A DNA stretch of 64,000 nt from Candidatus Dormiibacterota bacterium. GTDB lineage: Bacteria > Chloroflexota > Dormibacteria > Aeolococcales > Aeolococcaceae. The notes beneath the pieces are model-generated. The model did no database searches. It was not told the DNA's origin and saw only the letters and a program-made list of their open reading frames with translations. The stretch lies in contig JAFARE010000003.1 in the NCBI GenBank assembly GCA_019245575.1, positions 9,948 to 73,947 of the forward strand, written 5' to 3'. Positions 9,114-45,071 of the stretch are shown in pieces (position 1 is the stretch's first letter; each line of letters opens with the position of its first letter). A program made the position numbers and the translations under genes.

Positions 9114-9117
9114 CACG

Positions 9118-9909: not shown

Positions 9910-9919
9910 GGACGCGACT

Positions 9920-10246: not shown

Positions 10247-10487
10247 GTGGCGCCCCGGCGATGAAGCTGCAATCGGTGCCGCCGACCAGGCGAGCAGGCG
10301 AGGACGGCGAGCAGCGATAGCTGGGGCCGCCGGGCGGCAGAGGCGGACCGTCTCGGAGGCGAGACGGCACGGCTACGAGCGCAGGTCGAGCCGAGAGTCA
10401 GGGGCGGGGCGGCAGAGCCGCTCCGACCCCGTGGTCCGCCGAGTCCGCCGGCGGACCCTGTGTACCGCTGAGCGAGCGGGAAAACGG

Positions 10488-10811
10488 CTAGCGCAGCACC
10501 GACTGGAGCTTCATCGCGAGCCCCATGTCGCCCTTGATCTTGATCTTCCCACTCATGAACGCCATGGTCCCGTCGAGCTTCCCCAGGGCGAGGTCGACGA
10601 AGTCCTCGGCCTTCATCGCGATCGTGATGTTGGGGTTCTCCGGGGCACCGTGGCCGACATCGGCGGAGCCGTCCTTGAGGGCGATGTGGTATTGGCCGCC
10701 GTCGTCGCCGGAGAGGTCGAACGCGTACACCGCGTTCATGCCTTTCGACTTCGAGGGGTCGGACTTGAGCCGGCTGTCGATCTCGGTGAAGACTTCAGAA
10801 GGCGTGGGCAA
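10488..10811 (-). CDS. SCP2 sterol/lipid-binding domain protein
   Basis: 107 aa with 'AVYAFDLSG...ITIAMKAEDFVDLALGKLDGTMAFMSGKIKIKGDMGLAMKL', the SCP-2 signature. Confidence 0.8.
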   Translation of the reverse strand: MPTPSEVFTEIDSRLKSDPSKSKGMNAVYAFDLSGDDGGQYHIALKDGSADVGHGAPENPNITIAMKAEDFVDLALGKLDGTMAFMSGKIKIKGDMGLAMKLQSVLR

Positions 10812-10982
10812 GGGGGGTTCCTCCTCTGATGGGGCGGTCGCGACCGCCGCGGTCCGACGAGTCTACTGATTGCGGCCGCCAACACGGTTCGGGCCGGGCG
10901 GGGCTGAGACCCGGCTGAGAATCGGGGATCCGTGACCCGGGCTTCGCCCTCCTCTCAGGATCGGCCCGGAGAATCGAGCGCC

Positions 10983-12422: not shown

Positions 12423-12433
12423 GTGGAGCGCAC

Positions 12434-13651
12434 ATGATCACGCGACGCGACTTCCTGGTGAGCGGCCTCACGGCGACGGCGGCTGGCGTCATCGTCCCGC
12501 CGGTGCTGGCGAAGTCCGTGTTCGCCGCCACCGCCGACGGCATACACAACGACCGCGTCCTCGTGGTGGTGCAGCTTGCCGGTGGCAACGACGGGCTCAA
12601 CACGGTCGTTCCCTACGCCGACCCCGCGTACATGGATGCGCGCCCGACGCTGCGCGTGCAACCCGGCACGGTGCTGGCGCTCGACTCGCACACGGGGTTG
12701 AACCCGGCCCTGACCGGTCTCAAGCGTCTCTACGACGCGGGCGAGGTCGCCGTCGTGCAGGGCGTGGGGTATGACAACCCCTCGTATTCGCACTTCGAGA
12801 GCATGTACGTCTGGGAGCATGCCGACCCGGCGCGCCGGCAGACCGACGGATGGCTCGGCACGCTGCTGGCGAAGCAGCTCGACACGCAGGGTCATCCCCT
12901 CACGGCCTGCGCGCTCGGCGACGTGAGCACACCGCCGGAGATGCTCGCGAGCAAGGCGGAGGTCAGCGTGATCCAGTCCGTCGCCGCGTACCAGGTGCAG
13001 GGTGGCGCGTCGCGCGAATCCGCTGCTCCCGCGCTGTACCGCTCGACGCCGGGCGCGTACGGCGCGCTGTTCGACTCGGCGTTGAGCACGGCGGAAACGG
13101 GCATCGCGGCGCTGCACGCCCCGGGCGTGGCGTATTCACCTGCGGTGCCGTACACACCGAGCTCCGCCGCGTCGCCGCTGGCGACGTCGCTGCAGCTGAC
13201 GGCTGAGATGATCGTTACGCAGCCATCGGTGAAGGTCTGCCACGTGCTGTTGAGCGGGTTCGACACGCACCAGGACGAGGTGCGCCGCCAGACGGCGCTG
13301 CTGCAGCAGGTCGACGCCGCGCTGTCCGCTTTCATGCAGGACATGGCGGCGCACGGTCAGGCGGACCGCGTCGTGCTGATGACGTGGTCGGAGTTCGGCA
13401 GGCGCATCCACGAGAACGGCAGCCAGGGCACCGATCACGGCGCAGCCGCGCCGCTGTTCATCCTGGGCAAGCCGGTGAAGGGCGGCCTGTACGGCGAGAC
13501 GCCCTCACTCACGGACACGATCGACTCGGGCAATCTCAAGCACTCGGTCGACTTCCGCAGCGTGTACCAGGCGGTGGTGGGCGACTGGCTGCAAGGTGAC
13601 GCGGCGTCGGTGCTGGGCGGCGCGTTTCCCGCGCTGCCGCTCTTTCGCTGA
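12434..13651 (+). CDS. DUF1501 (sulfatase/alkaline-phosphatase-like) protein with Tat signal
   Basis: 'MITRRDFLVSGLTATAAGV' is a Tat signal. 'VVVQLAGGNDGLNTVVPY', 'GFDTHQ' and 'GTDHGAA' are typical of DUF1501. It starts 12 nt after the DUF1800 stop. Confidence 0.8.
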   Translation: MITRRDFLVSGLTATAAGVIVPPVLAKSVFAATADGIHNDRVLVVVQLAGGNDGLNTVVPYADPAYMDARPTLRVQPGTVLALDSHTGLNPALTGLKRLYDAGEVAVVQGVGYDNPSYSHFESMYVWEHADPARRQTDGWLGTLLAKQLDTQGHPLTACALGDVSTPPEMLASKAEVSVIQSVAAYQVQGGASRESAAPALYRSTPGAYGALFDSALSTAETGIAALHAPGVAYSPAVPYTPSSAASPLATSLQLTAEMIVTQPSVKVCHVLLSGFDTHQDEVRRQTALLQQVDAALSAFMQDMAAHGQADRVVLMTWSEFGRRIHENGSQGTDHGAAAPLFILGKPVKGGLYGETPSLTDTIDSGNLKHSVDFRSVYQAVVGDWLQGDAASVLGGAFPALPLFR

Positions 13652-13726
13652 ACCCGACCGCAGCGCCGTTTCAACCTCACCCTGCCGGGTGGTGTGCCCG
13701 GGCCAGAGCGTGGGTACACTCGGGAC

Positions 13727-14179
13727 ATGTGGTTTTGGGTGGTCTGGTTGGTGGCGGGGCTGTTGCTCGTCGCGGTGGAGGTGCACACGCAGGCCTTCTA
13801 CGCGGTCTTCCTGGCGCTGGGCGCGTTCGCCGCGACGATCATCACCGCCGTCGGCATCCCCGTCTGGCTCAGCGCCGTCGTCTTCGCGATCGTCGCGCTG
13901 GGCGGGACGCTGCTGGTGCGGCCCACGCTCAAGCGGATGTCGGACCGCCACATCGGTCCGCGCCTGCTGCTTCCCGGCTCATCGGACGCGCTCGTGGGTC
14001 AGCGCGCGCTCACCGTCGACGAGGTCGGCGACGAGCACCATCCGGGGCACGCCCGCCTCGCGGGTGAACGCTGGCTCGCCGTCACGGACGAACCCGGCGG
14101 CGTGAAGCCGCAGACGCAGGTGTTGGTTGTAGAAGTGCGCGGTACCACGCTCGTCGTGACGCCGTTTGCAGGGGGTTGA
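13727..14179 (+). CDS. NfeD family membrane protein
   Basis: Two or three N-terminal TM helices and a C-terminal OB-like domain ('GERWLAV...VLVVEVRGTTLVVTP'), lying immediately upstream of an SPFH gene. Confidence 0.75.
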   Translation: MWFWVVWLVAGLLLVAVEVHTQAFYAVFLALGAFAATIITAVGIPVWLSAVVFAIVALGGTLLVRPTLKRMSDRHIGPRLLLPGSSDALVGQRALTVDEVGDEHHPGHARLAGERWLAVTDEPGGVKPQTQVLVVEVRGTTLVVTPFAGG

Positions 14180-14185
14180 TCGAAC

Positions 14186-15130
14186 ATGGACCTCGCCATC
14201 GGCATCGTCATCGGCGTGATCGCCATCGTGGTTGCGATCATCGTGGCCTCCGCCATCAAGGTGGTGCCGCAGGGCTACTCCGGCGTCATCACCCGCTTCG
14301 GGCGCTTTCGCCGTGAGACGTCGCCCGGGCTCGCCATCATCACCCCGTTCCTGGACCGCCTGATCCGGGTCGACATGCGCGAGACGCCGCGCACCGGTGA
14401 CAGGCAGGACGTGATCACGCGCGACAACGTCGCCGTCGCGGTGAACGCGACCATCTTCAGCCAGATCATCGAGCCGCGCGCCGCGCTGTTCAACGTCTCC
14501 GACTACTTCGTCGCCATCGATCAGCAGGCGCGCACCACGCTGCGCAACGCCTTCGGCAACGTGACGCTGGACGAAGCGCTGTCCTCGCGTGAGCAGATCA
14601 ACGCATCGATGCAGGTGCAGATGGAGCAGGTGACGGACAAGTGGGGCATCCGGATCAACCGGATCGAGATCGTGGACATCACGCCGCCCGCGACGATCCT
14701 GCAGGCGATGGCGCTGCAGAAGCAGGCGGACCAGGAAAAGCGCGCACGCATCCTGCAGTCGGAGGGCCAGCAGCAGTCGGCGGTCAACATCGCCGATGGC
14801 AACCGGCAGGCCGCGATCAAGCAGGCGGAGGGCGAGAAGCAGGCCGCGATCCTGCGCGCTGAGGGCAACCGCCAGGCGGCGATTCTCGAGTCGGAGGGCC
14901 GCGCCCAGGCGATCCAGACCGTGTACGGCTCCATCAAGCAGGCGCAGCCCGACCCCACGCTGGTCGCCATCCTGCAGCTCGACACGCTGTCGAAGTTCGC
15001 TGACAGCGACAACACGAAGATCGTGATCCCCGCCGAGTCCGCGGGGTTGCTCGGTGCGGCGCAGGCGCTGCGCTCCGTGCTCAGTGACGCCCCCGCGCTC
15101 GACTCCGGCGGCGCCGCCACAAAGTCCTGA
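14186..15130 (+). CDS. SPFH/band-7 (stomatin-like) protein
   Basis: 314 aa with an N-terminal TM helix, 'VVPQGYSGVITRFGRF' and a coiled-coil 'QAEGEKQAAILRAEGNRQAAILESEG'. Confidence 0.9.
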   Translation: MDLAIGIVIGVIAIVVAIIVASAIKVVPQGYSGVITRFGRFRRETSPGLAIITPFLDRLIRVDMRETPRTGDRQDVITRDNVAVAVNATIFSQIIEPRAALFNVSDYFVAIDQQARTTLRNAFGNVTLDEALSSREQINASMQVQMEQVTDKWGIRINRIEIVDITPPATILQAMALQKQADQEKRARILQSEGQQQSAVNIADGNRQAAIKQAEGEKQAAILRAEGNRQAAILESEGRAQAIQTVYGSIKQAQPDPTLVAILQLDTLSKFADSDNTKIVIPAESAGLLGAAQALRSVLSDAPALDSGGAATKS

Positions 15131-15154
15131 TCCACTGACGCTGCCGGTGATCGC

Positions 15155-16537
15155 ATGAGCCAGCAGCCGGAGCTCTTCGGCGCCGGCGACCCGGCGGTGC
15201 AGCGAACCGTTGCACATGCGCACGCCGCGGATGCGCATGCGCCACTGGCCACGCGCATGCGGCCGCGCACGCTCGACGAGTTCGTGGGTCAGGGGCACGT
15301 GCTCGGCGAGGGCAGCGTGCTGCGCCGCGCCGTCGCCGGTGGCGAGGTGCCGTCGATGATCCTGTGGGGGCCGCCCGGCACCGGCAAGACAACGCTCGCG
15401 ATGCTGCTCGCCGATCTGTCGTCGGCTGCGTTCGAACCCGTGAGCGCGGCGACGGCCGGCGTCGCCGACCTTCGTGCCGTGGTGCAGCGCGCGCGCGAGC
15501 GGCAACGCGCCGGCGCGCGCACCCTGCTGTTCATCGACGAGATCCATCGCTTCAACAAGACCCAGCAGGACGCCGTGCTGCCGCATGTCGAATCGGGGCT
15601 GCTGACGCTGCTCGGTGCGACCACGGAGAACCCGTCGTTCGAGGTGAACTCGGCGCTGCTGTCGCGCACGCGGGTCGTGCGACTGGAGGCGCTGGAACCC
15701 GCCGACCTGGACACGCTCATCACACGCGCCCTGGCCGACGGCGAGCGCGGACTCGGCTCGCGCCCTGTGCAGCTCGAGGACTCGGCGCGAGCGCGGCTCA
15801 TCTCGCTGAGCGGCGGTGACGCGCGCGTGGCGCTCAACGCGCTCGAGCTCGCGGCGCAGGCTGTGGCCCGCGACTCCGACGCAGCGACGGTCACGGACCG
15901 CGACATCGAGGGCGCGCTGCAACAGCCTGCCCTGCTGTACGACCGCGCGGGCGACCAGCATTACTGGCTGATCTCGGCGTTCATCAAGTCGCTGCGCGGC
16001 AGCGATCCCGACGCCGCGGTGTACTGGATGGCGCGCATGCTCGAGGCGGGCGAGGACCCGCTCTTCGTCGCACGGCGCATGGTCATCCTCGCCGCGGAGG
16101 ACGTGGGCCTCGCGGACCCGCAGGCGCTCACCGTGGCGGTGGCGGCGCAGCAGGCCGCGCACTTCGTGGGGATGCCCGAGGGCTACCTGCCGCTCACCGA
16201 AGCAGCGCTGTACCTCGCCACCGCGCCCAAGAGCAACACCGCGCTCACGGCGTACACGTCGGCGCTGGAGGACGTCCGCGCGACCCTGCACCAGCCCGTG
16301 CCGCTGCATTTGCGCAACGCGGTGACGGGGCTGCAGCGCGCGATGGGGTTCGGCAGCGGCTACCGGTACTCGCATGCATACGACGACGCGGTGGTGGAGC
16401 AGCAGTACCTGCCCGACTCGCTGGCGGACCGCCGCTACTACGCACCCACGCGACAGGGAGCCGAGGCTCGCGTGGCCGAGCGCCTCGACGCCATCCGCCA
16501 GGAGCTTGCCCGGCGCAGGCAGGCGAGCGGGTCTTAA
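15155..16537 (+). CDS. rarA: replication-associated recombination protein A (AAA+ ATPase)
   Basis: Walker A 'GPPGTGKTT', 'LFIDEIHRFNK' and the C-terminal MgsA domain 'YDRAGDQHYWLISAFIKSLRGSDPDAAVYW'. Confidence 0.9.
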   Translation: MSQQPELFGAGDPAVQRTVAHAHAADAHAPLATRMRPRTLDEFVGQGHVLGEGSVLRRAVAGGEVPSMILWGPPGTGKTTLAMLLADLSSAAFEPVSAATAGVADLRAVVQRARERQRAGARTLLFIDEIHRFNKTQQDAVLPHVESGLLTLLGATTENPSFEVNSALLSRTRVVRLEALEPADLDTLITRALADGERGLGSRPVQLEDSARARLISLSGGDARVALNALELAAQAVARDSDAATVTDRDIEGALQQPALLYDRAGDQHYWLISAFIKSLRGSDPDAAVYWMARMLEAGEDPLFVARRMVILAAEDVGLADPQALTVAVAAQQAAHFVGMPEGYLPLTEAALYLATAPKSNTALTAYTSALEDVRATLHQPVPLHLRNAVTGLQRAMGFGSGYRYSHAYDDAVVEQQYLPDSLADRRYYAPTRQGAEARVAERLDAIRQELARRRQASGS

Positions 16538-16543
16538 GACGAA

Positions 16544-16564
16544 CGGCCGGGGCTCACCCGGCCG
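16544..16564 (+). terminator. GC hairpin after rarA
   Basis: CGGCCGGG-GCTCA-CCCGGCCG, an 8-bp stem beginning 7 nt after the stop. There is no U-tract. Confidence 0.4.
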
Positions 16565-16816
16565 GCGCGGGGGGCATCATCGGCGAAGTCCGGGGATACC
16601 CCCATCTTCCCGGCGCATCCCCCAAAAACCCTCCTTTCCCCCTCGCCGGCTCTAGCCGGCCGGCAACGAACCTAGCCCGCCCGGTCCCGAGCGCCCCATC
16701 CCCCGCGGTGGCCGGGCGGGCCGCCCCCCTTGTCCGCTTCGTTGCCGAATCTTTTCCATCGCGTTCGGCGACGCGCGCCTGCGCGGTCTACCCTGCGGTT
16801 TTGTGGGGGCAAGCAT

Positions 16817-17470
16817 GTGAGTGGTGCTGCCGAGGTGGGCGCCACCGACGCGATCCGGGTCCTCATCGTTGATGACCATCCCCTGGTCCGGCGTGGGCTG
16901 ACCTCGCTGCTCACCGGCGTGGCCGGCATCGACGTGGTCGGCGCCGTCTCGGATGGCGCGGAGGCGATCACCTCGGCGGAGCGCACCCTGCCCGACATCG
17001 TGCTCATGGACGTGTCCATGCCCGGCATGAGCGGCATGGAGGCGGCGCGCGAGCTGCGCAGCCGTGCCCCCGAGACGCGCGTGGTCATGCTGACGTCGTT
17101 CTCCCAGCACGACGTGGTGGTGGAGGCATTCGACTCCGGCGCCGTCGGGTACCTCCTTAAAGACTCGAACCCGGACGAGCTCATCAACGGCATCCGCGCG
17201 GCCGCCCGGGGCGACGCGCCGGTGTCGCCCCGCGCCGCCAAGGAGCTCATCGAGGAGCGCACCCACCGCCGCCCCATGGACGAGCTGACCCAGCGCGAGC
17301 GCGACGTCCTCAGCCTGGTGGCGCGTGGCCTGACCAACAAGCAGATCGCCTGGCGGCTCGGCATCAGCGAGAAGACCGTGAAGGCCCACCTGGGCAGCGT
17401 GTTCGACCGCCTCGGCGTGCAGGACCGCACCCAGGCCGCGCTCTGGGCGCAGAAGCACGGGGTGACCTAG
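16817..17470 (+). CDS. NarL/FixJ-family response regulator with LuxR-type HTH; no adjacent kinase
   Basis: Receiver domain 'IRVLIVDDHPLVRRG...VLMDVSMPGMSG' and HTH 'LTQRERDVLSLVARGLTNKQIAWRLGISEKTVKAHL'. The GTG at 16817 gives 217 aa. Confidence 0.85.
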   Translation: MSGAAEVGATDAIRVLIVDDHPLVRRGLTSLLTGVAGIDVVGAVSDGAEAITSAERTLPDIVLMDVSMPGMSGMEAARELRSRAPETRVVMLTSFSQHDVVVEAFDSGAVGYLLKDSNPDELINGIRAAARGDAPVSPRAAKELIEERTHRRPMDELTQRERDVLSLVARGLTNKQIAWRLGISEKTVKAHLGSVFDRLGVQDRTQAALWAQKHGVT

Positions 17471-18696
17471 GCCGGCGCGACCGTCCTGAGCGCCTCCAGC
17501 GCCTGGTCGAAGCCGGTGAGCGTCTGCTCCAGCTCGGCGTCGCCGTGTGCCGTGGAGCAGAAGGCGCTGGTGCGGAGGAGGTCCACGCCCTGCTCGCGCA
17601 TCGCGTTGGACAGTTCGGCCTGACGCCCGGGGTCGTCCAGGGCGATGTGGACGATGCTTGCGAGGCGCCACACCCGGCCCGGCTCCCCAGCTGTGTCCAT
17701 TGCGGCGCGGATCCCCGCCTCGAGGGACTGGGCGTACTCGGACGCCGCGTCCTGTGCGGAGCCATCGCCCGCCATGCGCAGCGACGCGATGCCGGCGGAG
17801 GCGGAGAGCGGGTTGGCGTTGTACGTGCCGGCGTGGGCGATCGGGCCAGCCAGGAGCTCCATCAGGTCGCGGCGCCCCGCCACGGCGCCGGCCGGCAGCC
17901 CGCCGGCCATCACCTTGCCCAGCACGGTCAGGTCGGGGGTGACGCCCAGCAGCGCCTGCATGCCGCCGGGTTCGACCCGAAATCCCGTCACCACCTCGTC
18001 GAGCACGAGCAGGGTGCCCGTGTCGTCGCACGCCCGCCGGATCGACGCCACCAGGCCGTCCTGCAGCGGGACGCCCCCGTAGTGCGCGCCCGATGCCTCC
18101 AGGATCACGGCCGCGGCGTCGCGGCCGGCCAGGGCGCGGCGCACGGCCTCGATCTCGGGAGGCACAACGCGGGTGGCCGACGCGGTGGCGGCGGCGACGC
18201 CGGGTGCGGCGACCTGTCGGCCCGCCTCGTCGAGGTCGAGGCTCACGGGGTCCGACCAGCCGTGGAAGTGACCCGCGAGCTTGACCACGATGTCGCGCCC
18301 CGTCGCCACCCGCGCGACGCGCAGCGCCAGGAGGACCGCCTCGGTGCCGGAGGCGGTGAAGCGGACCTCATCCGCCGACGGCACGAGCCCGCAGATCAGC
18401 TCAGCCCACTCAACCTCGAGCGGGTGGGCCGCGCCGTAGTGCGTGCCGCGACCCACCTGCTCGCGCACGGCCTCCACGATCGCGGGGTGGGCGTGCCCGT
18501 AGAGCAGCGCGCCGTGTCCCATCGTGTAGTCGACCAGCTCGCGCCCGTCGACCAGCCACTTGCGCGCGCCCTGGGCGCGCGCCACGTACACCGCCGGCTC
18601 GTAGGTGCGCACCACGTGCGTGCTGCCACCGGGCAGCACGCGGCGCGCGCGCGCAGCGAGGTTAGGTCTGGGCGACGCGGAGGGTTGGGAGGGCAC
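17467..18696 (-). CDS. class-III PLP aminotransferase, glutamate-1-semialdehyde aminomutase-like paralogue
   Basis: 409 aa with 'VLPGGSTHVVR' and the PLP-Lys context 'LTVLGKVMAGGLP', parallel to the hemL at 50807. Confidence 0.8.
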   Translation of the reverse strand: MPSQPSASPRPNLAARARRVLPGGSTHVVRTYEPAVYVARAQGARKWLVDGRELVDYTMGHGALLYGHAHPAIVEAVREQVGRGTHYGAAHPLEVEWAELICGLVPSADEVRFTASGTEAVLLALRVARVATGRDIVVKLAGHFHGWSDPVSLDLDEAGRQVAAPGVAAATASATRVVPPEIEAVRRALAGRDAAAVILEASGAHYGGVPLQDGLVASIRRACDDTGTLLVLDEVVTGFRVEPGGMQALLGVTPDLTVLGKVMAGGLPAGAVAGRRDLMELLAGPIAHAGTYNANPLSASAGIASLRMAGDGSAQDAASEYAQSLEAGIRAAMDTAGEPGRVWRLASIVHIALDDPGRQAELSNAMREQGVDLLRTSAFCSTAHGDAELEQTLTGFDQALEALRTVAPA

Positions 18697-19904: not shown

Positions 19905-19978
<74 letters not shown>

Positions 19979-31430: not shown

Positions 31431-31515
31431 GCCGGGCTGGCGAAATGGCAGACGCGGCGGTCTTAAAAACCGCCGGAGGGCGACCTCCATCCGGGTTCGA
31501 GTCCCGGGCTCGGCA
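31431..31515 (+). tRNA. tRNA-Leu (UAA), long variable arm, CCA not encoded
   Basis: Acceptor GCCGGGC/GCTCGGC, anticodon stem GCGGT/ACCGC with loop CTTAAAA, variable arm GGAGG-GCGA-CCTCC, T-arm CCGGG-TTCGAGT-CCCGG. Confidence 0.9.
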
Positions 31516-31719
31516 AGCCTAGTCGCAGCCCCCTCGTGGCTGACCCACGATCGAGCGGCCGGCGGCGGACACGCGTTTACGGCCGGCGGCCTTCTCTTTA
31601 CCGGTGATCACAACTCTGTGCTGGCCAGCAGCTGGCACAGGCGACAGACTCGCCGCACAAGGGTTACGCAGAGCACCCGTTTTCAGGCGGGCTCTCAACT
31701 TCCCGGCGGGAGACTATCG

Positions 31720-32667
31720 ATGGGGCTCTTTAGACGAGTCGGCTATGCCGCGTTCGTGGTCGGTACTGGCGGAACTGGAGCTGTTGCCAAGTGGGCGGTC
31801 ATGGGTACGGAGGGGAGCCGCCAGCGTAAAAAGCTGATCAAGCTGCAGAAGGAGCAGAACCGCAGGCTTCAAACGATGCACCAACCAGGCCCCGTCGGCC
31901 TCGCGACGTCATTGGTGGAACCACCGCCTATGCAGACCTCGTACGCTGTTGCGACTCCCCAACGACCGCAAGCGACTCCTCCCGTACTTGCCCCGCGCCG
32001 TGAGTGGTCCGGCCAGCTGCCGCCGGGCAGTGCTCCACCACCCCCGCCTCCGCCACCGGACCCTTCGCGTAAGCCGCCCCGGATCAGTAGGCGCGTTTGG
32101 CTCGTAATCGGCGGGTTCACTGTGATCCTGATCGCGGGCGTATCTGCGCTGGCGGCAACCCGTCCCTCCGTCCAGCCGGCAAGTGCGGACCTTCCATCGT
32201 CTGCGCCCTCGACACAAGCGCCCGCGAACTCCGCTCCGACCGACAATTCGCAAGCTGCGCCTCAAACAGCGGCACCAACGGCTTCCGCCGCCGCGCCTCC
32301 CACTTCGGCTCCGACACCGGCTCCGACGCCGCCACCGACGCCGGCCGCGCCCACCCTGACGCCGCAGCAACAGAACGCAGCGCAGGCCGCCCAGCAGTAC
32401 CTGAGCATCCAGGGCTTTTCGCGGCAGGGACTCATTGACCAACTGTCGTCATCTGCCGGCGACGGCTACTCCGTCCCAGATGCGACTGTCGCTGTCGACA
32501 GCCTCAATGTGGACTGGAATGCCGAGGCCGTCCAGGCGGCCAAGAGCTATCTGGCGATGCAGCCTTTCTCATGCAATGGTCTGATCCAACAATTGGACTC
32601 GTCGGCCGGTGATCAGTTCACCGTTGCTCAAGCTACATACGGAGCACAGCATTCGGGAGCGTGCTAG
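31720..32667 (+). CDS. membrane-anchored Pro-rich protein with two C-terminal Ltp (host cell surface-exposed lipoprotein) repeats
   Basis: One TM helix ('VWLVIGGFTVILIAGVSALAA'), a long Pro/Ala/Thr linker, then two repeats: 'AAQAAQQYLSIQGFSRQGLIDQLSSSAGDGYSVPDATVAVDSLNVDW' and 'AVQAAKSYLAMQPFSCNGLIQQLDSSAGDQFTVAQATYGA'. Confidence 0.7.
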   Translation: MGLFRRVGYAAFVVGTGGTGAVAKWAVMGTEGSRQRKKLIKLQKEQNRRLQTMHQPGPVGLATSLVEPPPMQTSYAVATPQRPQATPPVLAPRREWSGQLPPGSAPPPPPPPPDPSRKPPRISRRVWLVIGGFTVILIAGVSALAATRPSVQPASADLPSSAPSTQAPANSAPTDNSQAAPQTAAPTASAAAPPTSAPTPAPTPPPTPAAPTLTPQQQNAAQAAQQYLSIQGFSRQGLIDQLSSSAGDGYSVPDATVAVDSLNVDWNAEAVQAAKSYLAMQPFSCNGLIQQLDSSAGDQFTVAQATYGAQHSGAC

Positions 32668-32702
32668 CGGAGGGCTGTGAGCGTACCCACCACTGCACGC
32701 GA

Positions 32703-32736
32703 GCTCCGCTCCGCCCCTTTTGGGGCGGAGCGGGGC
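32703..32736 (+). terminator. strong GC hairpin after the Ltp-domain gene
   Basis: CCGCTCCGCCCC-TTTT-GGGGCGGAGCGG, a 12-bp perfect stem extendable to about 15 bp, 36 nt after the stop. No U-tract follows. Confidence 0.55.
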
Positions 32737-32798
32737 TGTCACACTACGCAAATCGGAAAGAAAAGCTGGCTTGACGGCCAGAGGACAAGCTCCGTGTA

Positions 32799-32822
32799 GG
32801 TTCGAGCCCGGGCCCGGTAGTC
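32799..32822 (+). repeat. degenerate direct copy of the tRNA-Leu 3' end (att-like)
   Basis: GGTTCGAGCCCGGGCCCGGTAGTC compared with tRNA 31494-31515 GGTTCGAGTCCCGGGCTCGGCA followed by ..TAGTC. There is one indel and two mismatches across the T-loop and acceptor. The upstream bases cannot form a T-stem. Confidence 0.4.
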
Positions 32823-32956
32823 ACTCCGCTGCTTGTTGCGGCAGCAGGTCAGGAGGCCGTCAACGCACGAGCGCGAGCGCGCTTCTTCGCGCGACCCAGC
32901 ACCAATAGCGCCATCGCATGGGATCTTGCGACGCTAGTGCAGACTGATGCTACGTT

Positions 32957-33196
32957 GTGCACGTGAAGATCGACGTCCGCGAGTTGAGAGATCGCATCAC
33001 CGAAGTGCTCGACGCTGTTGAGGCTCGCGAGCGCGTGATTCTGACGGTGCGCGGTCACCCTGTCGCGGACATCGTCCCGCACGCGCCGCGCGGTCGCTGG
33101 CTCCCGGGCGGCTGGCTGGCGGCAGAGCTGAGGGAGCGCGCGGCTGATCCCGCCCTGAGCCACGAGCTGGACGCGACCAACGCCATGCTGTCATGA
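32957..33196 (+). CDS. Phd/YefM-family antitoxin-like protein
   Basis: 79 aa with 'IDVRELRDRITEVLDAVEARERVILTVRGHPVADIVP', the Phd/YefM fold pattern, and a C-terminal tail like Phd-type VapB antitoxins. GTG start. Confidence 0.75.
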   Translation: MHVKIDVRELRDRITEVLDAVEARERVILTVRGHPVADIVPHAPRGRWLPGGWLAAELRERAADPALSHELDATNAMLS

Positions 33197-33819
33197 GACT
33201 TGCGCGATTCTGGTGGACGCTAATCGCCATCGACGTGGCGACCGGTGTCGTCATCAACTTCATCCTCGCGATCGTCGAACCGTCGCCCGCGGGACAGATC
33301 GGGACGAGCCTGCTTCGGTACTTCAGCTACTTCACCGAGGAGAGCAACATCTTCGTGCTGGCGGCGACGATCCCGCTGGCGATGGACCCGCAGCACGACG
33401 GGCGCGCGTGGCGTGTGCTTCGCGTCATGTCGCTGCTGGGCATCACGATCACCGGCCTCGTGTTCGCCATCGTGCTGGCACCGACGAGCCATCCTCACGG
33501 CGCTGGCGTGGCGTCGAACCTCATGCTGCACTACATCTCGCCGGTGGGCTCGATTGCCGGCTGGCTCCTCTTCGGGCCGCGGCCGCGCATCGCCCTCCGC
33601 ACGCTCGCGCAAGCGATCATCTGGCCACTGCTCTGGGTTGGGTACATCCTCGCGCAGGGTCCGGCGACGGGCTGGTACCCCTACGACTTCCTCAACGTGA
33701 CCGTGCACGGATACGGTCGGGTCGGCATCAACCTCGCCTTCATCCTCATCCTCAGTGTTGTGATCCTCGCGTTGCTGCGCCTGGGTGACCGCCTCCCCGC
33801 ATCGAGGGCCGCTGCATGA
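33193..33819 (+). CDS. 6-TM membrane protein, Pr6Pr / FAR-17a-AIG1-like
   Basis: The ATG overlaps the antitoxin stop (ATGA, 33193-33196). Six hydrophobic helices. 'YFSYFTEESNIFV' and 'LMLHYISP' resemble the family motifs. The family call is from memory. Confidence 0.6.
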   Translation: MRLARFWWTLIAIDVATGVVINFILAIVEPSPAGQIGTSLLRYFSYFTEESNIFVLAATIPLAMDPQHDGRAWRVLRVMSLLGITITGLVFAIVLAPTSHPHGAGVASNLMLHYISPVGSIAGWLLFGPRPRIALRTLAQAIIWPLLWVGYILAQGPATGWYPYDFLNVTVHGYGRVGINLAFILILSVVILALLRLGDRLPASRAAA

Positions 33820-34454
33820 GCACGCACATCGAAGAGTTCCACTTCGGCGCCGCCGTGTACACGGCGGACGGCAAGCACATCGGCTCCCTGCGCCGCCTCA
33901 TTGTCGACGGAGAGAGCTTCGATCTGCACGCGCTCGTGGTGAAGGAGACCAGGATGTTCTCGGGACACCACATCGCGGGGACCGGGCTCTTGGAGGACGA
34001 CATCGCCGTTCCGATTGCGGCCGTCTCCAGCGTCACGCATGAGCGCGTCGAGCTGTCGCTCTCAGCCGCCGAAGCGAGACGCACGGCACCCTACCTGACG
34101 TACCAGTACGCGCCCCTCTGCAGGGGCGATCTGGGCCGCATGGCTGTCGCGTTCGCCGGCCAGAGCGCCCACATGCCCAGGCTCATCGAACAGGCTGACA
34201 AGCGCGCGGACGAGCTCGAACTCAATCCAGGCGAGAACGTCATGCTCGGCAGGACCGGTCGCAAGCTCGGGACGGTCCGCGACCTCGTCATCGACGACGG
34301 TGAGCTCGTGGGCGTGGTCGTGCATCCTGAGGGATTCTTCAAGGACGACGTGCTCCTGCAGATCCGGTTCCTGGACCGCAGTGACGACCTCGCCCTCTTC
34401 GTGCACCTCACCGACGAGGATCTTCGGCACCTGCAGCCGTATCACCCGGAGTAG
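33816..34454 (+). CDS. double PRC-barrel domain protein
   Basis: The ATG overlaps the upstream stop (ATGA, 33816-33819). Two repeats of the PRC-barrel pattern: 'VYTADGKHIGSLRRLIVDGES..LHALVVK' and 'VMLGRTGRKLGTVRDLVIDDGELVGVVVH'. Confidence 0.7.
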   Translation: MSTHIEEFHFGAAVYTADGKHIGSLRRLIVDGESFDLHALVVKETRMFSGHHIAGTGLLEDDIAVPIAAVSSVTHERVELSLSAAEARRTAPYLTYQYAPLCRGDLGRMAVAFAGQSAHMPRLIEQADKRADELELNPGENVMLGRTGRKLGTVRDLVIDDGELVGVVVHPEGFFKDDVLLQIRFLDRSDDLALFVHLTDEDLRHLQPYHPE

Positions 34455-34476
34455 CGCGGGCGAGCGAGCGCGGTGC

Positions 34477-34827
34477 TCATCGCTGCGTCGCGGCTGCGAA
34501 CTCGTCGTATGCCGCCAGCGCGCGCGGGCCCCACACGGTCGCCGGTCCACCGTTGAGCAGCACCGCGACACCCATCGCCTCCGCCACCTGTTCGCGCGAG
34601 GCACCGCGTCGCACGGCGCCGCGCGCGTGCGCGGCGATGCAGCCGTCGCACTCCCGCGTCACCGCGATCGCCAGCCCGATCAGCTCCTTCATGCTCGCCG
34701 AGAGCGCGCCGTCCTTGACCACGGCCCGGTGCATGTCCGCGTATGCCGCCCACACCTCAGGAATCGCCTGACGCAGCTCCTGCACGGGGCCGCGCATCTC
34801 GTCGAGCGTCTGCTGAGACTGAGCCAT
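34477..34827 (-). CDS. carboxymuconolactone decarboxylase-family (AhpD-like) protein
   Basis: 'MKELIGLAIAVTRECDGCIAAHARGA', an AhpD-type CxxC. I chose the ATG at 34827 because GGAGGAGG lies about 5 nt upstream. The track ORF starts at 34848. Confidence 0.85.
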   Translation of the reverse strand: MAQSQQTLDEMRGPVQELRQAIPEVWAAYADMHRAVVKDGALSASMKELIGLAIAVTRECDGCIAAHARGAVRRGASREQVAEAMGVAVLLNGGPATVWGPRALAAYDEFAAATQR

Positions 34828-34896
34828 GTCGCCTCCTCCGGTGATCACCTGCGCCGTCGGTGCAGCGTGGCAGATCGACTCGGGGGGCGAAGCGGG

Positions 34897-35571
34897 CTAG
34901 GCGGTTTTCGGCACCAGCACCTCGACATTGTCGCCGTTGGCGCGCACCGTGATCGCCGGCAGCGGCGTGACCAGGTGCGAGTACGCGGTGCCCGAATGCG
35001 GCGTGCCGTCAAGGCTGAAGGTGGCGTAGTGGCACGGGCACACAAAGCGCTCACCGGCCGGGTCGGGGTTCAGGATGCAGCCCTGGTCGGTGCACACGGC
35101 CGACACCGCCTTGAGCTCACCGTTTGCCGCGTAGACGAAGCCGGGGATGCCCGCCGCCGTGAACGCGTGGATGCGCCCCGGCGTGAGCGCGGCGACCGTG
35201 GTCACCGCAACCCACTGGCCGTCGGTGGGCTGGATCGTGCCGCCCGACCCGCTGGGCTCGGTGAGCGCTTCACGCCAGTGCTCGATGCCGAAACCGGCGC
35301 CGATTCCCGCCGCCGCCGCAAGACCCGCGGCAGCCAGGAACCGCCGCCGCTGCGGCATGGGCACGGGTGCCTCTGTCTCCTGGTGCCGCAGCCGGCGGGC
35401 GAGCGAGTCCACAAACTCGGGCGACGGCTCTGCCGAACCCGGATGCGCGGCGTGCAGCGCCGCTGCCAGCTGCATCGCGGGCGCATCGTCTCCGGCTTCG
35501 CCCTCGGGGGGACGCCGGTCCTTGAGCAGCGCGTCGATGTAGCGCTGCAGCCTGCGATCGCGCTTGCTCAT
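34897..35571 (-). CDS. Tat-anchored Rieske-fold protein, putative anti-sigma partner
   Basis: Its start overlaps the sigma-factor stop (ATGA). About 75 aa of cytoplasmic N-terminus, then 'RRRFLAAAGLAAAAGIGAG' (Tat-like signal or anchor), then a Rieske fold 'CTDQGC...CPCH' in which the first His is replaced by Asp. Confidence 0.65.
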   Translation of the reverse strand: MSKRDRRLQRYIDALLKDRRPPEGEAGDDAPAMQLAAALHAAHPGSAEPSPEFVDSLARRLRHQETEAPVPMPQRRRFLAAAGLAAAAGIGAGFGIEHWREALTEPSGSGGTIQPTDGQWVAVTTVAALTPGRIHAFTAAGIPGFVYAANGELKAVSAVCTDQGCILNPDPAGERFVCPCHYATFSLDGTPHSGTAYSHLVTPLPAITVRANGDNVEVLVPKTA

Positions 35572-42957: not shown

Positions 42958-43305
42958 TCAGATGCCCGCGGGACGCGACGCTCCGAAAATCAGCGCGATG
43001 ATCACAATCCATGCGACCAGGCCGATGATCCCGCAGACGATCCCAGTCAGCGCCATCCCTCGCCCCAATCCGCCCATTCGGTTTGCATTTCGCAGTCCGA
43101 TTGAGCCGAAGATGATCGCGAGGATTCCAAGGATGAGCCCGAATATGAAGATCGAAATGATCCCGAGGACGCCAGCAGCCGTGGCGATTCCATTCTTCGG
43201 AGCTGCCGGACTCCACTGCTGCTGGGGAGGGTATGGCGAATACGACGAGGGCGGTGGCCCGTGCGGCGGACCTGCCGGCGGCGTCTGCGGATTCAACTCG
43301 GACAT
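42958..43305 (-). CDS. DUF4190 membrane protein with Pro-rich N-terminus
   Basis: 'NGIATAAGVLGIISI...GILAIIFGSIGLRNANRMGGLGRGMALTGIVCGIIG', the DUF4190 pattern. Confidence 0.7.
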   Translation of the reverse strand: MSELNPQTPPAGPPHGPPPSSYSPYPPQQQWSPAAPKNGIATAAGVLGIISIFIFGLILGILAIIFGSIGLRNANRMGGLGRGMALTGIVCGIIGLVAWIVIIALIFGASRPAGI

Positions 43306-43378
43306 TTGAGCCTCCCTTCACTAGCCCAGGTCAGCCGGATAGTACTGATCCAGGTGGCCGCAGCGTTGGGCCTTCGCC

Positions 43379-43804
43379 TCAGGTCGGGAAGGGCGTGAAG
43401 GTCGGGAAGTCGGGCACGGTGGTGACTGTGTGCACGCTCACCGCGAAGATGATCAGAAAAAGGATTGAGATAACGATTGCGACGATGCCGCAGACGATAC
43501 CCGTGACCGACATGCCTCGCCCAGCACCACCCAGCCGATTGGCGCGGGAGTTGCCGATGAACCCGAACACTACGGCAAGAATGCCAAGGATGATGGACAC
43601 GATGTTGAAGATCGGAATCCAAGACGGGACCACGGCGATGATGCCGCAAACCCCGGCGGCAATCGCAATTCCGTTGCCTGGCGGTGCGACCGCGTAAGGA
43701 TGCGGTCCGTAGTAGTGATATGGCGGCGGCGATCCCGGCGGGACATAACCCGACGGAGGCGGTAGGGGCGGGCTGGGACGGTCGGAATGAGGTCCGTCGG
43801 TCAT
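43379..43804 (-). CDS. DUF4190 membrane protein (paralogue) with Pro/Tyr-rich N-terminus
   Basis: 'NGIAIAAGVCGII...GILAVVFGFIGNSRANRLGGAGRGMSVTGIVCGIVA', clearly paralogous to 42958-43305. Confidence 0.7.
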   Translation of the reverse strand: MTDGPHSDRPSPPLPPPSGYVPPGSPPPYHYYGPHPYAVAPPGNGIAIAAGVCGIIAVVPSWIPIFNIVSIILGILAVVFGFIGNSRANRLGGAGRGMSVTGIVCGIVAIVISILFLIIFAVSVHTVTTVPDFPTFTPFPT

Positions 43805-43855
43805 CGCTCAGGTCAGGAAGTGGGTTCGGACCACGTTACTGTCTGAGGTATCGCT

Positions 43856-44383
43856 TTAGACGCTTGGAGGAGGCGGAGGAGGCGTGCCCCCGTAGCCACC
43901 GCCGTATGACGGCGCCACTGGAGCCTCACCCGGAAAGCGGCTGATCACTACGAGGTAATAGAGGATTCCGTAGATGATCAGTGCGAAGATGAACCCCACG
44001 ATTGCGCCTGCTGCGCTGTAGCCCAAGGCATATATCCCGCTGTAGGCGACGATGTTGCCAATCAGGCTTATCAGAGCGCCGAGCAGCCCAAGGGCTATCC
44101 CATAGATCACGAGGCGCTTGCCATCGCGATTGAGGTTGTACATCTGAAAGCCGCCAATGGCAGCCAGTATGTAGGCGATCAGTCCAACGATCACCCCCAA
44201 ACCCCAGATGAGTTGGAATCCACCCGCGAAGGCGAAGACCGATATCAGACCCTCGAGCAGACCGATGAAAACAGCTCCAATCACCGCGAGGATTGCGAGC
44301 ACGAGCCCGAGAATCTTGGCGTTGACATTCAGCTTCACCGGCGGGTTGGCCGCAAACGGTGGATCAGTGAGCGTGTTGGCCAT
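43856..44383 (-). CDS. hypothetical 4-TM membrane protein with Gly/Tyr/Pro-rich C-terminus
   Basis: The ATG at 44383 gives 175 aa with four TM helices and a tail 'APSYGGGYGGTPPPPPPSV'. The DNA here is A/T-richer than the flanks. Confidence 0.5.
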   Translation of the reverse strand: MANTLTDPPFAANPPVKLNVNAKILGLVLAILAVIGAVFIGLLEGLISVFAFAGGFQLIWGLGVIVGLIAYILAAIGGFQMYNLNRDGKRLVIYGIALGLLGALISLIGNIVAYSGIYALGYSAAGAIVGFIFALIIYGILYYLVVISRFPGEAPVAPSYGGGYGGTPPPPPPSV

Positions 44384-44469
44384 GTGCCAGTTGTGCCCTC
44401 CAAATGTGACTGCGTTGTAGCGGCGCATGATAAGGCCTGCGCCTGGCTCGGGTGGAAGGTTTGCGTCGC

Positions 44470-44922
44470 TTAGTCGAACGTGTCCTCCTGCAGCATCTGG
44501 CGCACCGTCATCCTGGCGCCCTCACGCGGCCGCTTGAGCCAAGCGGCGACGCCCAGGGCGATGGCCGCGAAGACAGCGAGCAGAAATCCAAAGCCCAGCG
44601 ACCTGCCGCCGCCCATCGCGTCGAGCACCAGCTGGAGCAGCACGGTGCCGGCCGCGACAGCAGCGACGACGCTGAACGCCTGCCGCTCGTCGAGGCGCTC
44701 GCTGATCACGTCCTCGATGACGCGGTGACGCATCAGCAGCAGCAGCGCGGTCGCTGCGATGGCGAGGAAGAAGAGGTCTCCGAGCAGCGACGCGCGGAAC
44801 CCGTTGACCGTCACGCGGGCCGTGGCTGACATGTAGCTGTACCAGGGCACGAAGGCTGCGATGAGCCCCAGCAGCACCGCCAGTGCGGCCGCGCGGTCGG
44901 CTCCGTTCACCCGTCTCAACAT
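44470..44922 (-). CDS. hypothetical 4-TM membrane protein
   Basis: The ATG at 44922 gives 150 aa. Hydrophobic helices. No family recognised. Confidence 0.45.
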   Translation of the reverse strand: MLRRVNGADRAAALAVLLGLIAAFVPWYSYMSATARVTVNGFRASLLGDLFFLAIAATALLLLMRHRVIEDVISERLDERQAFSVVAAVAAGTVLLQLVLDAMGGGRSLGFGFLLAVFAAIALGVAAWLKRPREGARMTVRQMLQEDTFD

Positions 44923-45071
44923 GCCGGGATCCCTCTGATGAACCGTGGTGTGATGCCCGGACGCCGCAAGCCGCGACCGGTGTGCGTGATTGGTTCGAGC
45001 GGATGGTAGCAGCACATCGGTTCGTGTCAACGCCGTCTGGCGCGTTCGCGCTGATCGCGCGACGGGGTCCG

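Follow-up and report, generated by a model that had tools for sequence, protein, structure and literature searches.

The window analysed here, a stretch of 64,000 nucleotides, carries on its forward strand an intact tRNA-Leu(UAA) gene at 31431-31515 (ARAGORN; Rfam tRNA, 51.7 bits, E 9e-10), which forms the attL-side end of an insert and its putative integration target. A spacer (31516-31719) leads from the tRNA to a gene of the Ltp family on the same strand (31720-32667), which is followed by a hairpin (32702-32737) and then by a second, degenerate copy of the tRNA 3' part in direct orientation (32774-32822), the attR-side end. Further to the right, Pfam and NCBIfam models identify a Phd-family antitoxin (32963-33196), a Pr6Pr membrane protein (33193-33819) and a PRC-barrel protein (33816-34454), all on the forward strand, and an AhpD/CMD-like protein on the reverse strand (34477-34848). 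The first conserved gene on this side encodes a Rieske-domain protein (34897-35571, reverse strand) with 68-70% amino acid identity to proteins encoded in the same position and orientation in two relatives, L087 and L133, and marks the right edge of a variable slot.

The tRNA-Leu(UAA) gene and its 3' repeat

The repeated segment of the tRNA (31469-31515), delimited by repeat search and local alignment, begins with the 3' strand of the anticodon stem and ends with the discriminator base. Its second copy lies in direct orientation 1.28 kb downstream of the tRNA, and 35 of the 47 bases are identical between 31469-31515 and 32774-32819. The best-kept core of the copy, GGTTCGAGCCCGGGCCCGGTA (32799-32819, followed by GTC), differs from the tRNA sequence GGTTCGAGTCCCGGGCTCGGCA by two substitutions and one deletion (19/22), the deletion being situated in the T-loop, and the repeat is weaker 5' of this core (16/25 bases, 64%). 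An earlier note on this DNA had described a tRNA-Leu(UAA) followed by a degenerate copy of its own 3' end, which ARAGORN, Rfam and the repeat searches all bear out, but had placed the start of the similarity inside the T-loop; the repeat instead extends back to 31469, the base immediately 3' of the anticodon loop. A relaxed Rfam search made no tRNA call in 32774-32822. We rejected the possibility that the right-hand copy derives from another tRNA gene that has decayed: no 5' half can be traced, and a tandem tRNA is found in 0/33 orthologous loci.

The genome is 70% G+C and the T-arm motif GGTTCGA is common, and the local alignment score of the repeat (33) is close to that of the best unrelated pairs in the window (28), all of which might suggest a chance match within ordinary native DNA. 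At up to three errors, however, the only matches to the core on either strand of the window are the tRNA-Leu(UAA) gene and the copy at 32799-32819, and no match outside tRNA genes occurred in 3.3 Mb of control DNA (1.59 Mb of loci, mostly of high G+C, on two strands), where all nine matches were genuine tRNA-Leu(UAA) genes. The chance expectation for such a repeat on the same strand of the 3.4-kb slot is below about 0.001, and none of the 33 orthologous loci has a comparable repeat downstream of the tRNA. GCCCGGTA, present in the right-hand core, is the most frequent natural variant of the tRNA-Leu(UAA) 3' end in Dormibacterota, and since it is the two substitutions that recreate this allele, the copy is a real tRNA fragment. 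The repeat also coincides with a compositional boundary (see below). A chance match is thus effectively refuted, and the claim that the repeat exceeds chance stands.

The alleles are nevertheless not distributed as the simplest model would have it. In the functional tRNA the 3' allele is the one usual for the clade to which the window belongs, whereas the displaced copy has that of the other clade. A crossover in or near the anticodon loop would most simply have placed the two the other way round, which counts against an insertion model; the observed placement could be accommodated either by a crossover at the far 3' end or by a clade-typical allele that is itself derived from an element.

Identical copies of the 5' 43-mer of this tRNA occur in 32 GTDB loci, almost all of them metagenome-assembled genomes (MAGs) of Candidatus Dormibacterota/Dormibacteraeota, and the orthologous sites show repeated use by mobile DNA. 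Tyrosine integrases lie 38-123 nt past the orthologous tRNA in three loci (L104, L107 and L089), a phage terminase is encoded downstream of it in another (L105), and related phage-like ORFs are found near it in two more (L096 and L097). The spacing between the tRNA and a conserved PrmC-like gene varies within the main clade from about 0.8 kb to 5.2 kb. The tRNA-Leu(UAA) gene beside an SprT-like gene is therefore a phylum-wide integration hot spot. A search of IMG/VR with a degenerate tRNA-Leu 3' pattern returned one phage contig of 53% GC with tRNA genes of its own, which we discarded as unrelated.

The segment between the repeats and the slot around it

The Ltp-family gene is the sole gene between the repeats. 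It is preceded by a GGGAG ribosome-binding site 8 nt before its ATG, and further upstream in the spacer, at about 31556-31598, a G+C-rich stem is followed by UUCUCUUU, which together could serve to end the tRNA transcript. Folding of this 5' spacer is unexceptional (z -0.5), and a scan of it for sigma-70-like promoters, which is uninformative for Dormibacterota, returned no site. The hairpin 3' of the gene (32702-32737, forward strand) has 16-nt arms that are 94% complementary, a TTTT loop and no T-run, and the 12-bp perfect hairpin that had been reported after the gene corresponds to 12 perfect base pairs within these arms. The surrounding 101 nt fold far more stably than expected (z -4.17), and the hairpin is likely to be a factor-independent terminator of the high-GC type that lacks a T-run. 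Sub-threshold Rfam matches of the hairpin to gyrA, ftsZ-DE and sbcD RNAs were judged to be hairpin-driven noise.

The composition of the segment is foreign chiefly in its codon usage. GC3 of the Ltp-family gene is 0.671 compared with 0.882±0.046 for the window's other genes, while its total GC is 0.649 compared with 0.707±0.032 in other ORFs (-1.8 SD), and other 1-kb pieces of the window are equally low or lower. The earlier description of the insert as less GC-rich is accordingly right for third codon positions, where the shift is strong, and overstated for total GC, where it is mild. Genes to the right of the repeat have host-like GC3 values (0.81-0.87), the gene upstream of the tRNA is likewise host-like, and the anomaly ends at the right-hand repeat.

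It had also been proposed that no integrase remains, and this agrees with our searches: ORFs between 29.6 and 35.6 kb gave no Pfam integrase match, and tblastn of two Dormibacterota integrases from tRNA-Leu-adjacent positions against the whole window gave nothing better than E 0.08. No integrase fragment or other element gene survives beside the Ltp-family gene between the repeats. Two metagenome contigs carry the same locus with 100% identity, the same arrangement and the same gene call.

The 2.1 kb to the right of the repeat (32823-34898) are host-like in composition, yet missing from syntenic relatives. DNA homology to one such relative (L133) stops at 31515 and resumes at 34899, and in L133, L121 and L087 alike homology breaks at the tRNA 3' end and returns at the Rieske gene, the gap being filled in three different ways (1.2, 2.8 and 3.4 kb) with other genes. 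Because these 2.1 kb are missing as well, the right boundary given in the earlier note delimits a single layer within a variable slot of larger extent (31516-34898).

A clean empty site, in which the tRNA would be joined directly to the sequence right of the repeat, GTCACTCCGCTGC... and the Phd gene, was not found among the syntenic relatives, in the contexts of methyltransferase homologues or among SprT-anchored metagenome loci, where the two contigs with 99-100% identity to the window (L131 and L135) end before the tRNA. The closest Pr6Pr homologue with flanking sequence (L155) is not syntenic, and a scan of genome contigs with the PRC-barrel protein yielded no relative. Exact matching with the tRNA variant found in the window returned nothing, either with a 60-mer in genome contigs or with a degenerate 35-mer in metagenome contigs, so that neither set supplied relatives at the strain or species level; the nearest syntenic relatives are distant, with 50-57% amino acid identity in the methyltransferase.

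The Ltp-family protein

The gene at 31720-32667 encodes a protein of 315 amino acids, assigned to the Ltp family by its PF07553 and PHROG matches and set apart by its GC3. The PF07553 model, whose search had been suggested in the earlier note, matches in two stretches with 97 bits (cut-off 23.2; E 6.5e-28), and the two 'superinfection exclusion' PHROGs 15667 and 4980 match at E 7e-41 and E 1e-32, respectively. A predicted cytoplasmic N-terminal part (residues 1-125) is followed by a single strong transmembrane (TM) helix, VWLVIGGFTVILIAGVSALAA (32095-32157, residues 126-146; peak hydropathy 2.36), a linker rich in Pro, Ala, Ser and Thr (residues 147-210) and the double Ltp repeat domain (32350-32664, residues 211-315), which comprises six helices, bears a net charge of -6 and contains two nearly invariant cysteines. 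The proposed architecture of a TM anchor, a long Pro-rich spacer and two Ltp repeats is thereby recovered, although there are in fact two Pro-rich segments, of which one is predicted to be cytoplasmic and the other external. An RISRR motif directly before the TM helix suggests, by the positive-inside rule, an N-in/C-out topology, and the repeat domain is predicted to lie outside the cytoplasmic membrane on a flexible linker of about 65 residues.

An AlphaFold2 model of the repeat domain (pLDDT 93.5) also has six helices, and its best Foldseek matches are chains A and B of 4eqq, the Ltp protein of phage TP-J34 (TM 0.79/0.85-0.89, rmsd 1.3-1.4 Å, 31% identity), with RecX next at E 0.7; phmmer against the PDB finds 4eqq at E 3.6e-5. 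The protein has no lipobox: its first cysteine is in the second Ltp repeat and its hydrophobic segment starts at residue 126. This argues against the label 'lipoprotein' and not against membership of the PF07553 domain family, and our data support a true member of the Ltp family with two repeats, held in the membrane by a TM helix rather than by lipid. Such anchoring, to which attention had been drawn, is nothing special and is common among environmental members of the family: of the 120 closest homologues, about 99 have a TM anchor and 14 a lipobox. PADLOC defence models gave only a noise-level match to the protein, and NCBIfam holds no model that matches it.

Several observations indicate that the repeat module is carried by mobile elements. 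Three homologous loci (L127, L128 and L082) show 80-81% DNA identity to the module, the similarity beginning at the end of the linker and stopping at the stop codon, and the module is 80% DNA-identical between genomes whose neighbouring orthologues share 50-57% amino acid identity. GC3 is low in every homologue checked. For the repeat domain, dN/dS is 0.10-0.27. The module is encoded in 109 phage records and is often found in temperate phages, among them those of Gordonia, Streptococcus and Lactobacillus; hundreds of homologues with very diverse N-terminal parts occur in bacterial chromosomes, many of them with no recognisable element nearby. A scan of IMG/VR with the protein, limited in power by its single-protein word patterns, gave no confirmed relative. 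The module of L130 sits in a resolvase/SSB islet with a GC dip, and the three close homologues whose neighbourhoods we inspected (L127/L128, L129 and L130) lie among recombinase, DNA-methylase or other mobile-element-type genes. Of these, L129 (ENA ERZ1700618 contig_EHDLDABF_70485) is an intact 13-kb element in tRNA-Ile(GAU) that encodes a tyrosine integrase, a small regulator, a replication-initiator-like protein and a TM-anchored double-Ltp protein whose repeat domain is 77% identical to that of the window, and in which no phage structural genes are recognisable. Its att repeat is a perfect 36 nt that starts right after the anticodon loop, as the window's repeat does, and the intact element is followed in tandem by a 1-kb segment that ends in a third, degenerate copy of the tRNA.

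Origin of the segment and comparison with known systems

Taken together, the significant repeat, the foreign codon usage confined to the interval between its copies, the hot-spot tRNA and the synteny break at the tRNA 3' end support an integrase-type insertion at the 3' end of tRNA-Leu, as had been proposed. We consider it probable that 31516-32822 is what decay has left of an integrative element that was inserted by a tyrosine integrase into the 3' part of tRNA-Leu(UAA). Points against this reading are the placement of the alleles, the degeneracy of the right repeat, the failure to find a clean empty site among relatives that are distant, and the survival of no element gene besides the Ltp-family gene. 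The parent may have been a temperate phage or a plasmid-like integrative element of the integrase/replication type. Recombination between an attP carrying a tRNA-like 3' segment and the tRNA gene would have left a working tRNA at the left junction, while the right junction would have received another copy of everything 3' of the anticodon loop. This second copy, free of selection, would then have drifted, acquiring the deletion and two substitutions in its last 22 nt and more changes further 5'. A later deletion would have removed the integrase and all else, leaving a single cargo gene together with the ribosome-binding site before it and the terminator hairpin behind it.

The cargo would be a single-pass N-in/C-out membrane protein that presents its acidic double Ltp domain outside the membrane and, by homology with TP-J34 Ltp, would most likely bind part of the DNA-delivery machinery of an incoming phage and block genome entry. 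Exclusion is the most likely function by analogy, and a cheap, constitutive exclusion function of benefit to the host is the proposed reason why the gene has been kept intact. The terms 'domesticated' and 'exclusion', both used in the earlier note, are imprecise in so far as their basis is homology together with the purifying selection seen across the family. The sequence of steps, the type of the parent, the activity of the gene and the way in which exclusion would work are all matters that we infer. The further designation as a prophage remnant is not supported. There is no phage structural, packaging, lysis or lysogeny-control gene between the repeats, and only the Ltp gene matches PHROGs, the four neighbouring genes giving no match. 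Although the parent may have been a phage, we prefer the more cautious term 'integrative element' because L129, the best intact comparator, has no recognisable phage structural genes.

The remaining alternatives concern what the protein does and how the segment came to be as it is. The protein could be a host cell-envelope component with a non-defence role such as wall or surface binding, the Ltp fold then being a generic extracytoplasmic interaction module. To our knowledge exclusion has been demonstrated for only a few Ltp family members, and the abundance of chromosomal homologues with diverse N-terminal parts, together with the failure of defence-system models, would fit such a role. We nonetheless think it unlikely, given that its nearest matches among curated families are the 'superinfection exclusion' PHROGs of phages, that the module is frequent in temperate phages, that the three close homologues inspected sit among mobile-element-type genes and that the gene is compositionally foreign. 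A separate origin of the Ltp gene and the tRNA fragment has somewhat less to recommend it: the fragment would be an older insertion scar or the left end of the Phd-Pr6Pr-PRC-CMD block, and the gene would have arrived independently by illegitimate or homologous recombination. Since synteny is lost over the entire 3.4-kb slot, several events must have occurred there, and the double-repeat module does recombine freely with different N-terminal anchors; but foreign GC3 is limited to one gene between the tRNA and the fragment, the interval comprises exactly one gene and its own terminator, and L129 directly shows an Ltp module inside a tRNA-integrated element.

Cis-mobilizable elements (CIMEs) are decayed remnants of ICEs, IMEs or prophages, defined in ICE systems of Firmicutes, where their movement has been shown experimentally. 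By definition they are att-flanked elements that lack integration and transfer genes (PMC5704250), and the layout of the segment, with both att sides kept, invites the reading that it is a still-mobilisable CIME or miniature island, a portable Ltp cassette that could still be excised or co-transferred by tRNA-Leu-specific integrases belonging to other elements of the population. Integrases specific for tRNA-Leu(UAA) do circulate in the phylum, and the 1-kb segment accreted in tandem in L129 would be a parallel. We regard present-day mobility as improbable, however, in view of the decay of the right repeat (a T-loop deletion and two substitutions in the 22-nt core, and 64% identity further 5') compared with the perfect 36-nt repeat of L129, and of the identical arrangement in both other contigs with the locus. 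More speculative still, and a long shot in our estimation, is the notion that the acidic double-Ltp module is a freely recombining exclusion cassette carried on many anchors in Dormibacterota, that the 1.3-kb att-flanked unit is its minimal vehicle, exploiting the tRNA-Leu-specific integrases of resident phages and integrative plasmids, and that the 125-residue Pro-rich N-terminal part couples surface exclusion to an intracellular partner.

Candidatus Dormibacterota is an abundant, uncultured phylum of soil and peat, and its mobile elements and phage defences are almost undescribed; among full-text papers mentioning both terms, none had Dormibacter or prophage in its title or abstract. The segment itself is a genomic islet of a commonplace type, from a phylum that has been studied little, and leaves the understanding of tRNA-targeted integration and of Ltp proteins unchanged. 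It does indicate that genes of the Ltp type, with a role in exclusion suggested by homology, travel on integrative elements in Dormibacterota, and that single cargo genes can outlast their vehicles. These observations may be of use in the annotation of Dormibacterota MAGs and in spotting mis-binned prophage contigs, and the Ltp-family gene is a candidate for study once a phage-host system for the phylum exists.

Among known systems, the L129 element resembles the segment in that both have a TM-anchored double-Ltp gene, integration at a tRNA 3' end and a repeat that starts right after the anticodon loop, and the segment beyond L129 is likewise closed by a degenerate copy. L129 differs in its integrase, regulator, replication initiator, perfect 36-nt repeats and tRNA-Ile target, and there is no DNA similarity between the two outside the Ltp repeat module. 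The segment also shares with CIMEs and tRNA islets an intact tRNA at one end, a direct 3' repeat at the other, a composition foreign to the host, the lack of an integrase, one adaptive gene as cargo and an insertion site used by other elements in relatives. Its right repeat is degenerate, which makes mobilisation at the present day doubtful.

Ltp of TP-J34, a temperate phage of Streptococcus thermophilus, is a superinfection exclusion lipoprotein that blocks the entry of phage DNA after adsorption and interacts with the tape measure protein (TP-J34/P008), and its gene adjoins int within the lysogeny module of a complete prophage (PMC3952083); the window gene, by contrast, has neither int nor any phage gene beside it, and its host is an uncultured member of the Dormibacterota. 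The two proteins differ in length (315 amino acids in the window, 142 in TP-J34), in the spacer (rich in Pro, Ala, Thr and Ser compared with serine-rich) and in the anchor, which is a TM helix after a 125-residue cytoplasmic part in the window protein and a lipid attached at a lipobox in TP-J34 Ltp. Both nevertheless consist of two tandem three-helix repeats (PF07553; PDB 4eqq; model rmsd 1.3 Å), and they have in common an acidic repeat domain, a flexible low-complexity spacer and an extracytoplasmic location, which for the window protein is predicted. The net charge of the window domain agrees with the role reported for acidic residues in TP-J34 Ltp (PMC3952083).

A displaced 3′ end of tRNA-Leu(UAA)

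As the earlier note proposed, a tRNA-Leu(UAA) gene stands at the head of the insert and a degenerate copy of its 3′ end recurs downstream. The gene is intact (31431-31515, plus strand; ARAGORN and the Rfam tRNA model agree), and the direct copy of its T-arm and acceptor 3′ strand has the core GGTTCGAGCCCGGGCCCGGTA (32799-32819), which differs from the tRNA's GGTTCGAGTCCCGGGCTCGGCA by two substitutions and one deletion. In a search of both strands with a 22-mer query and up to three errors, these two sites were the sole matches in the window, and 1.59 Mb of fetched control loci (mostly 64-72% G+C) gave nine matches, all of them genuine tRNA-Leu(UAA) genes; no non-tRNA match was found elsewhere in either set. 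Likewise, in 33 orthologous tRNA-Leu loci no repeat of this kind follows the tRNA. Within the variable 3.4-kb slot that runs from the tRNA to the Rieske gene (31516-34898), fewer than about 0.001 matches on the same strand are therefore expected by chance.

Two further properties argue that the copy is a real tRNA fragment. Its substitutions change GCTCGGCA to GCCCGGTA, an exact match to the commonest natural 3′ allele of tRNA-Leu(UAA) among Dormibacterota genomes, and the acceptor 5′ strand GCCGGGC pairs with either one. Moreover, weaker similarity (16/25) continues 5′ of the core, so the full repeat (31469-31515 versus 32774-32819) begins at the base immediately 3′ of the anticodon loop and extends to the discriminator. 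The suggestion that similarity begins inside the T-loop was thus imprecise. An intact element in another tRNA (locus L129) has a perfect 36-nt att repeat with the same start point. A minus-strand terminator-like hairpin, CTGGC-CGTCAA-GCCAG followed by CTTTTCTTTC (32766-32790), lies partly within the degenerate 5′ portion of the fragment (32774-32798); no present gene reads into this hairpin, which may be left over from an element gene since lost.

The single ORF of the insert (31720-32667, plus strand) starts 204 nt downstream of the tRNA behind a GGGAG ribosome-binding site, and the hairpin reported after the gene was found at 32702-32737, with 16-nt arms, a TTTT loop and no T-run. The claim that the insert is less GC-rich holds for third codon positions, where the gene is a clear outlier (GC3 0.671 versus 0.882±0.046 in other ORFs), but total G+C is only mildly depressed (0.649 versus 0.707±0.032 in the 52 other ORFs of the window) and other 1-kb windows are equally low or lower. 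GC3 is 0.825 in the methyltransferase gene left of the tRNA and host-like (0.81-0.87) in the four genes right of the repeat. The anomaly is limited to the interval between the tRNA and its fragment; of the evidence within the window, this argues most strongly that the foreign segment ends at the repeat. The lowest G+C patch of the window (0.61-0.63) lies at 43001-45000; its minus-strand genes (43379-43804, 43856-44428 and 44470-45030) encode small multi-TM proteins with Pro-rich ends, and it could be another acquired islet.

The Ltp-type cargo and its relatives

The 315-residue product contains all the parts described in the earlier note: a single strong TM helix at residues 126-146, just after RISRR, a Pro/Ala/Ser/Thr-rich linker of ~65 residues, and two C-terminal Ltp repeats. 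Residues 1-125 are predicted to be cytoplasmic, basic and then Pro-rich, and match no family. The PF07553 profile, which had been put forward as a check, matches with 97 bits (E 6.5e-28). Two PHROGs with the annotation 'superinfection exclusion', 15667 and 4980, match as well (E 7e-41 and 1e-32). The TP-J34 Ltp structure (4eqq) was recovered from the PDB by phmmer (E 3.6e-5, both repeats covered) and was the sole significant Foldseek match to an AlphaFold2 model of residues 205-315 (six helices, pLDDT 93.5; TM 0.79/0.85, rmsd 1.3 Å). The product is an Ltp-type cargo protein. Its repeat domain carries a net charge of -6 and two nearly invariant cysteines, and dN/dS against five homologues is 0.10-0.27. 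The 315 residues contain no lipobox, which is not unusual because, among the 120 closest homologues, about 99 have a TM segment and 14 a lipobox (LAGC in the homologue P0004, for example). Binding has been shown between TP-J34 Ltp and the tape measure protein of phage P008 (PMC3952083). By homology, the protein described here would exclude phage by binding, on the outer side of the membrane, some part of the DNA-delivery machinery of the incoming phage.

DNA identity to six comparison loci (L127, L128, L082, L081, L129 and L130) is 74-81% and restricted to the double Ltp repeat (~32311-32670), from where the linker ends to the stop codon; orthologues neighbouring the locus in related genomes share just 50-57% amino-acid identity. 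The anchors and N-terminal parts of the window protein and these six are unrelated, being a lipobox, a short N-terminus with a TM segment, or the 125-residue N-terminus of the window. This restriction of the similarity to the repeats suggests a conserved exclusion module subject to domain shuffling. GC3 is depressed in all Ltp homologues checked. The module is also encoded in 109 phage records at 40-63% identity (Gordonia, Streptococcus, Lactobacillus, Acinetobacter, Psychrobacter and others), and ltp adjoins int in phage TP-J34 (PMC3952083). Among the bacterial loci, the Ltp gene of L127 adjoins a DNA methylase and an ORC/CDC6-like ATPase, and L130, a resolvase/SSB islet, shows a dip in G+C.

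tRNA-Leu(UAA) as an integration hot spot

Thirty-two GTDB loci, almost all from MAGs named Candidatus Dormibacterota/Dormibacteraeota, share the 43-nt 5′ half of the tRNA without a mismatch, and nearly all have a SprT-like gene just upstream on the opposite strand. In the window and a sub-clade (L087, L095, L121, L133), an APH-family kinase and a methyltransferase lie between this gene and the tRNA, joined in the window by a DUF1801 gene. The order in L133 and L121 is SprT-APH-MT-tRNALeu-DinB-alkylation repair-Rieske-sigma-DUF5995; L095 agrees as far as the start of DinB, where its contig ends, and L087 has different genes between tRNA and Rieske. The DNA of L133 matches the window as far as 31515 and again from 34899. 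In three lineages, the slot is therefore filled with unrelated DNA, of 1.2, 2.8 and 3.4 kb. About 0.8-5.2 kb separates the tRNA from a conserved PrmC-like gene in the main clade. Genes of mobile elements often open the slot: tyrosine integrases (PF00589 matches at E 2e-22 and 3e-21) start at a distance of 38 nt from the tRNA in L104 and 123 nt in L107, the L107 integrase also occurs in L089, the large terminase of a phage is encoded downstream in L105, and related phage-like ORFs occur in L096 and L097. Across the phylum, this tRNA is a hot spot for integration. No species-level empty site was found among the genome and metagenome loci searched, and the two other contigs carrying the Ltp gene are 100% identical to the window.

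Several side observations concern these loci. L096, L097, L105, L112 and L120 are binned as Saccharimonadales or Solirubrobacterales and have the Dormibacterota-type tRNA; the first four share a 15-nt flank after it, that of L120 being different, and these contigs are probably wrongly binned, prophage-containing Dormibacterota DNA. A minus-strand tRNA-Cys(GCA) lies upstream of the APH/methyltransferase genes (window 19905-19978, L087 5283-5356, L088 3994-4067); in L087 and L088 it directly follows an aminotransferase gene, and the genes separating it from the APH gene also vary there.

The 2.1 kb right of the repeat encodes a Phd-family antitoxin, a Pr6Pr membrane protein, a PRC-barrel protein and an AhpD/CMD-like protein. 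This block is lineage-specific yet compositionally native and may represent an earlier layer at this hot spot. Its first two genes lie at 32963-33819, where the Phd gene (TIGR01552, 35 bits versus a cut-off of 20.8) overlaps the Pr6Pr start by ATGA; the 208-aa Pr6Pr-family product (NF038065, E 2e-30) is a multi-pass membrane protein. Phd would usually be paired with a Doc, YoeB or PIN toxin. The gene may be an orphan antitoxin or part of an unusual pairing; L155, the closest Pr6Pr homologue with flanking DNA, has no adjacent Phd gene.

Origin of the segment

The best-supported account is that an integrative element entered the 3′ part of tRNA-Leu by tyrosine-integrase recombination, and that later deletion would have stripped it down to one cargo gene between two att-side repeats. 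The placement of the alleles does not fit its simplest version. The working tRNA carries GCTCGGCA, typical of its own clade (L087, L095, L117, L121 and L133 all have it), and the displaced copy carries the allele of the other clade; a crossover near the anticodon loop would predict the opposite arrangement. This leaves two explanations: exchange at the extreme 3′ end, or derivation of the clade-typical allele itself from an element. More generally, the tRNAs of L087-L123 and the window (31494-31515) have identical 5′ halves and acceptor 3′ strands of GCTCGGC-A or GCCCGGT-A, each pairing with GCCGGGC via one G-U pair at a different position, with hybrids in L115 and L120. This pattern may be a footprint of repeated 3′-end replacement by integrating elements.

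The reading of the locus as a domesticated prophage remnant stands as far as the insertion remnant and its Ltp-type cargo are concerned, and the observation itself is confirmed, with the start of the repeat and the G+C composition corrected. Prophage origin, domestication and exclusion activity are unproven. In the PHROG comparison the Ltp gene alone has matches and its four neighbours have none, no further phage gene remaining, and the best intact comparator, L129, has no recognisable phage structural genes. The latter is a 13-kb element in tRNA-Ile(GAU) with a tyrosine integrase (16544-17500), a small regulator, a replication-initiator-like gene, an Ltp gene (10001-10603) and perfect 36-nt repeats (17607-17642 and 4639-4674). 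A third, degenerate tRNA copy (3631-3652) lies 1 kb beyond it and bounds a further 1-kb segment with a PNPOx-like gene. The whole (3631-17680) exemplifies the tandem accretion that is also proposed for the window.

The locus is mainly useful as annotation knowledge for an uncultured phylum. Its layout is that of a cis-mobilizable element, in which both att sites survive (PMC5704250), although in the window the right att site has decayed; it is a further case of an already known kind of insertion remnant.
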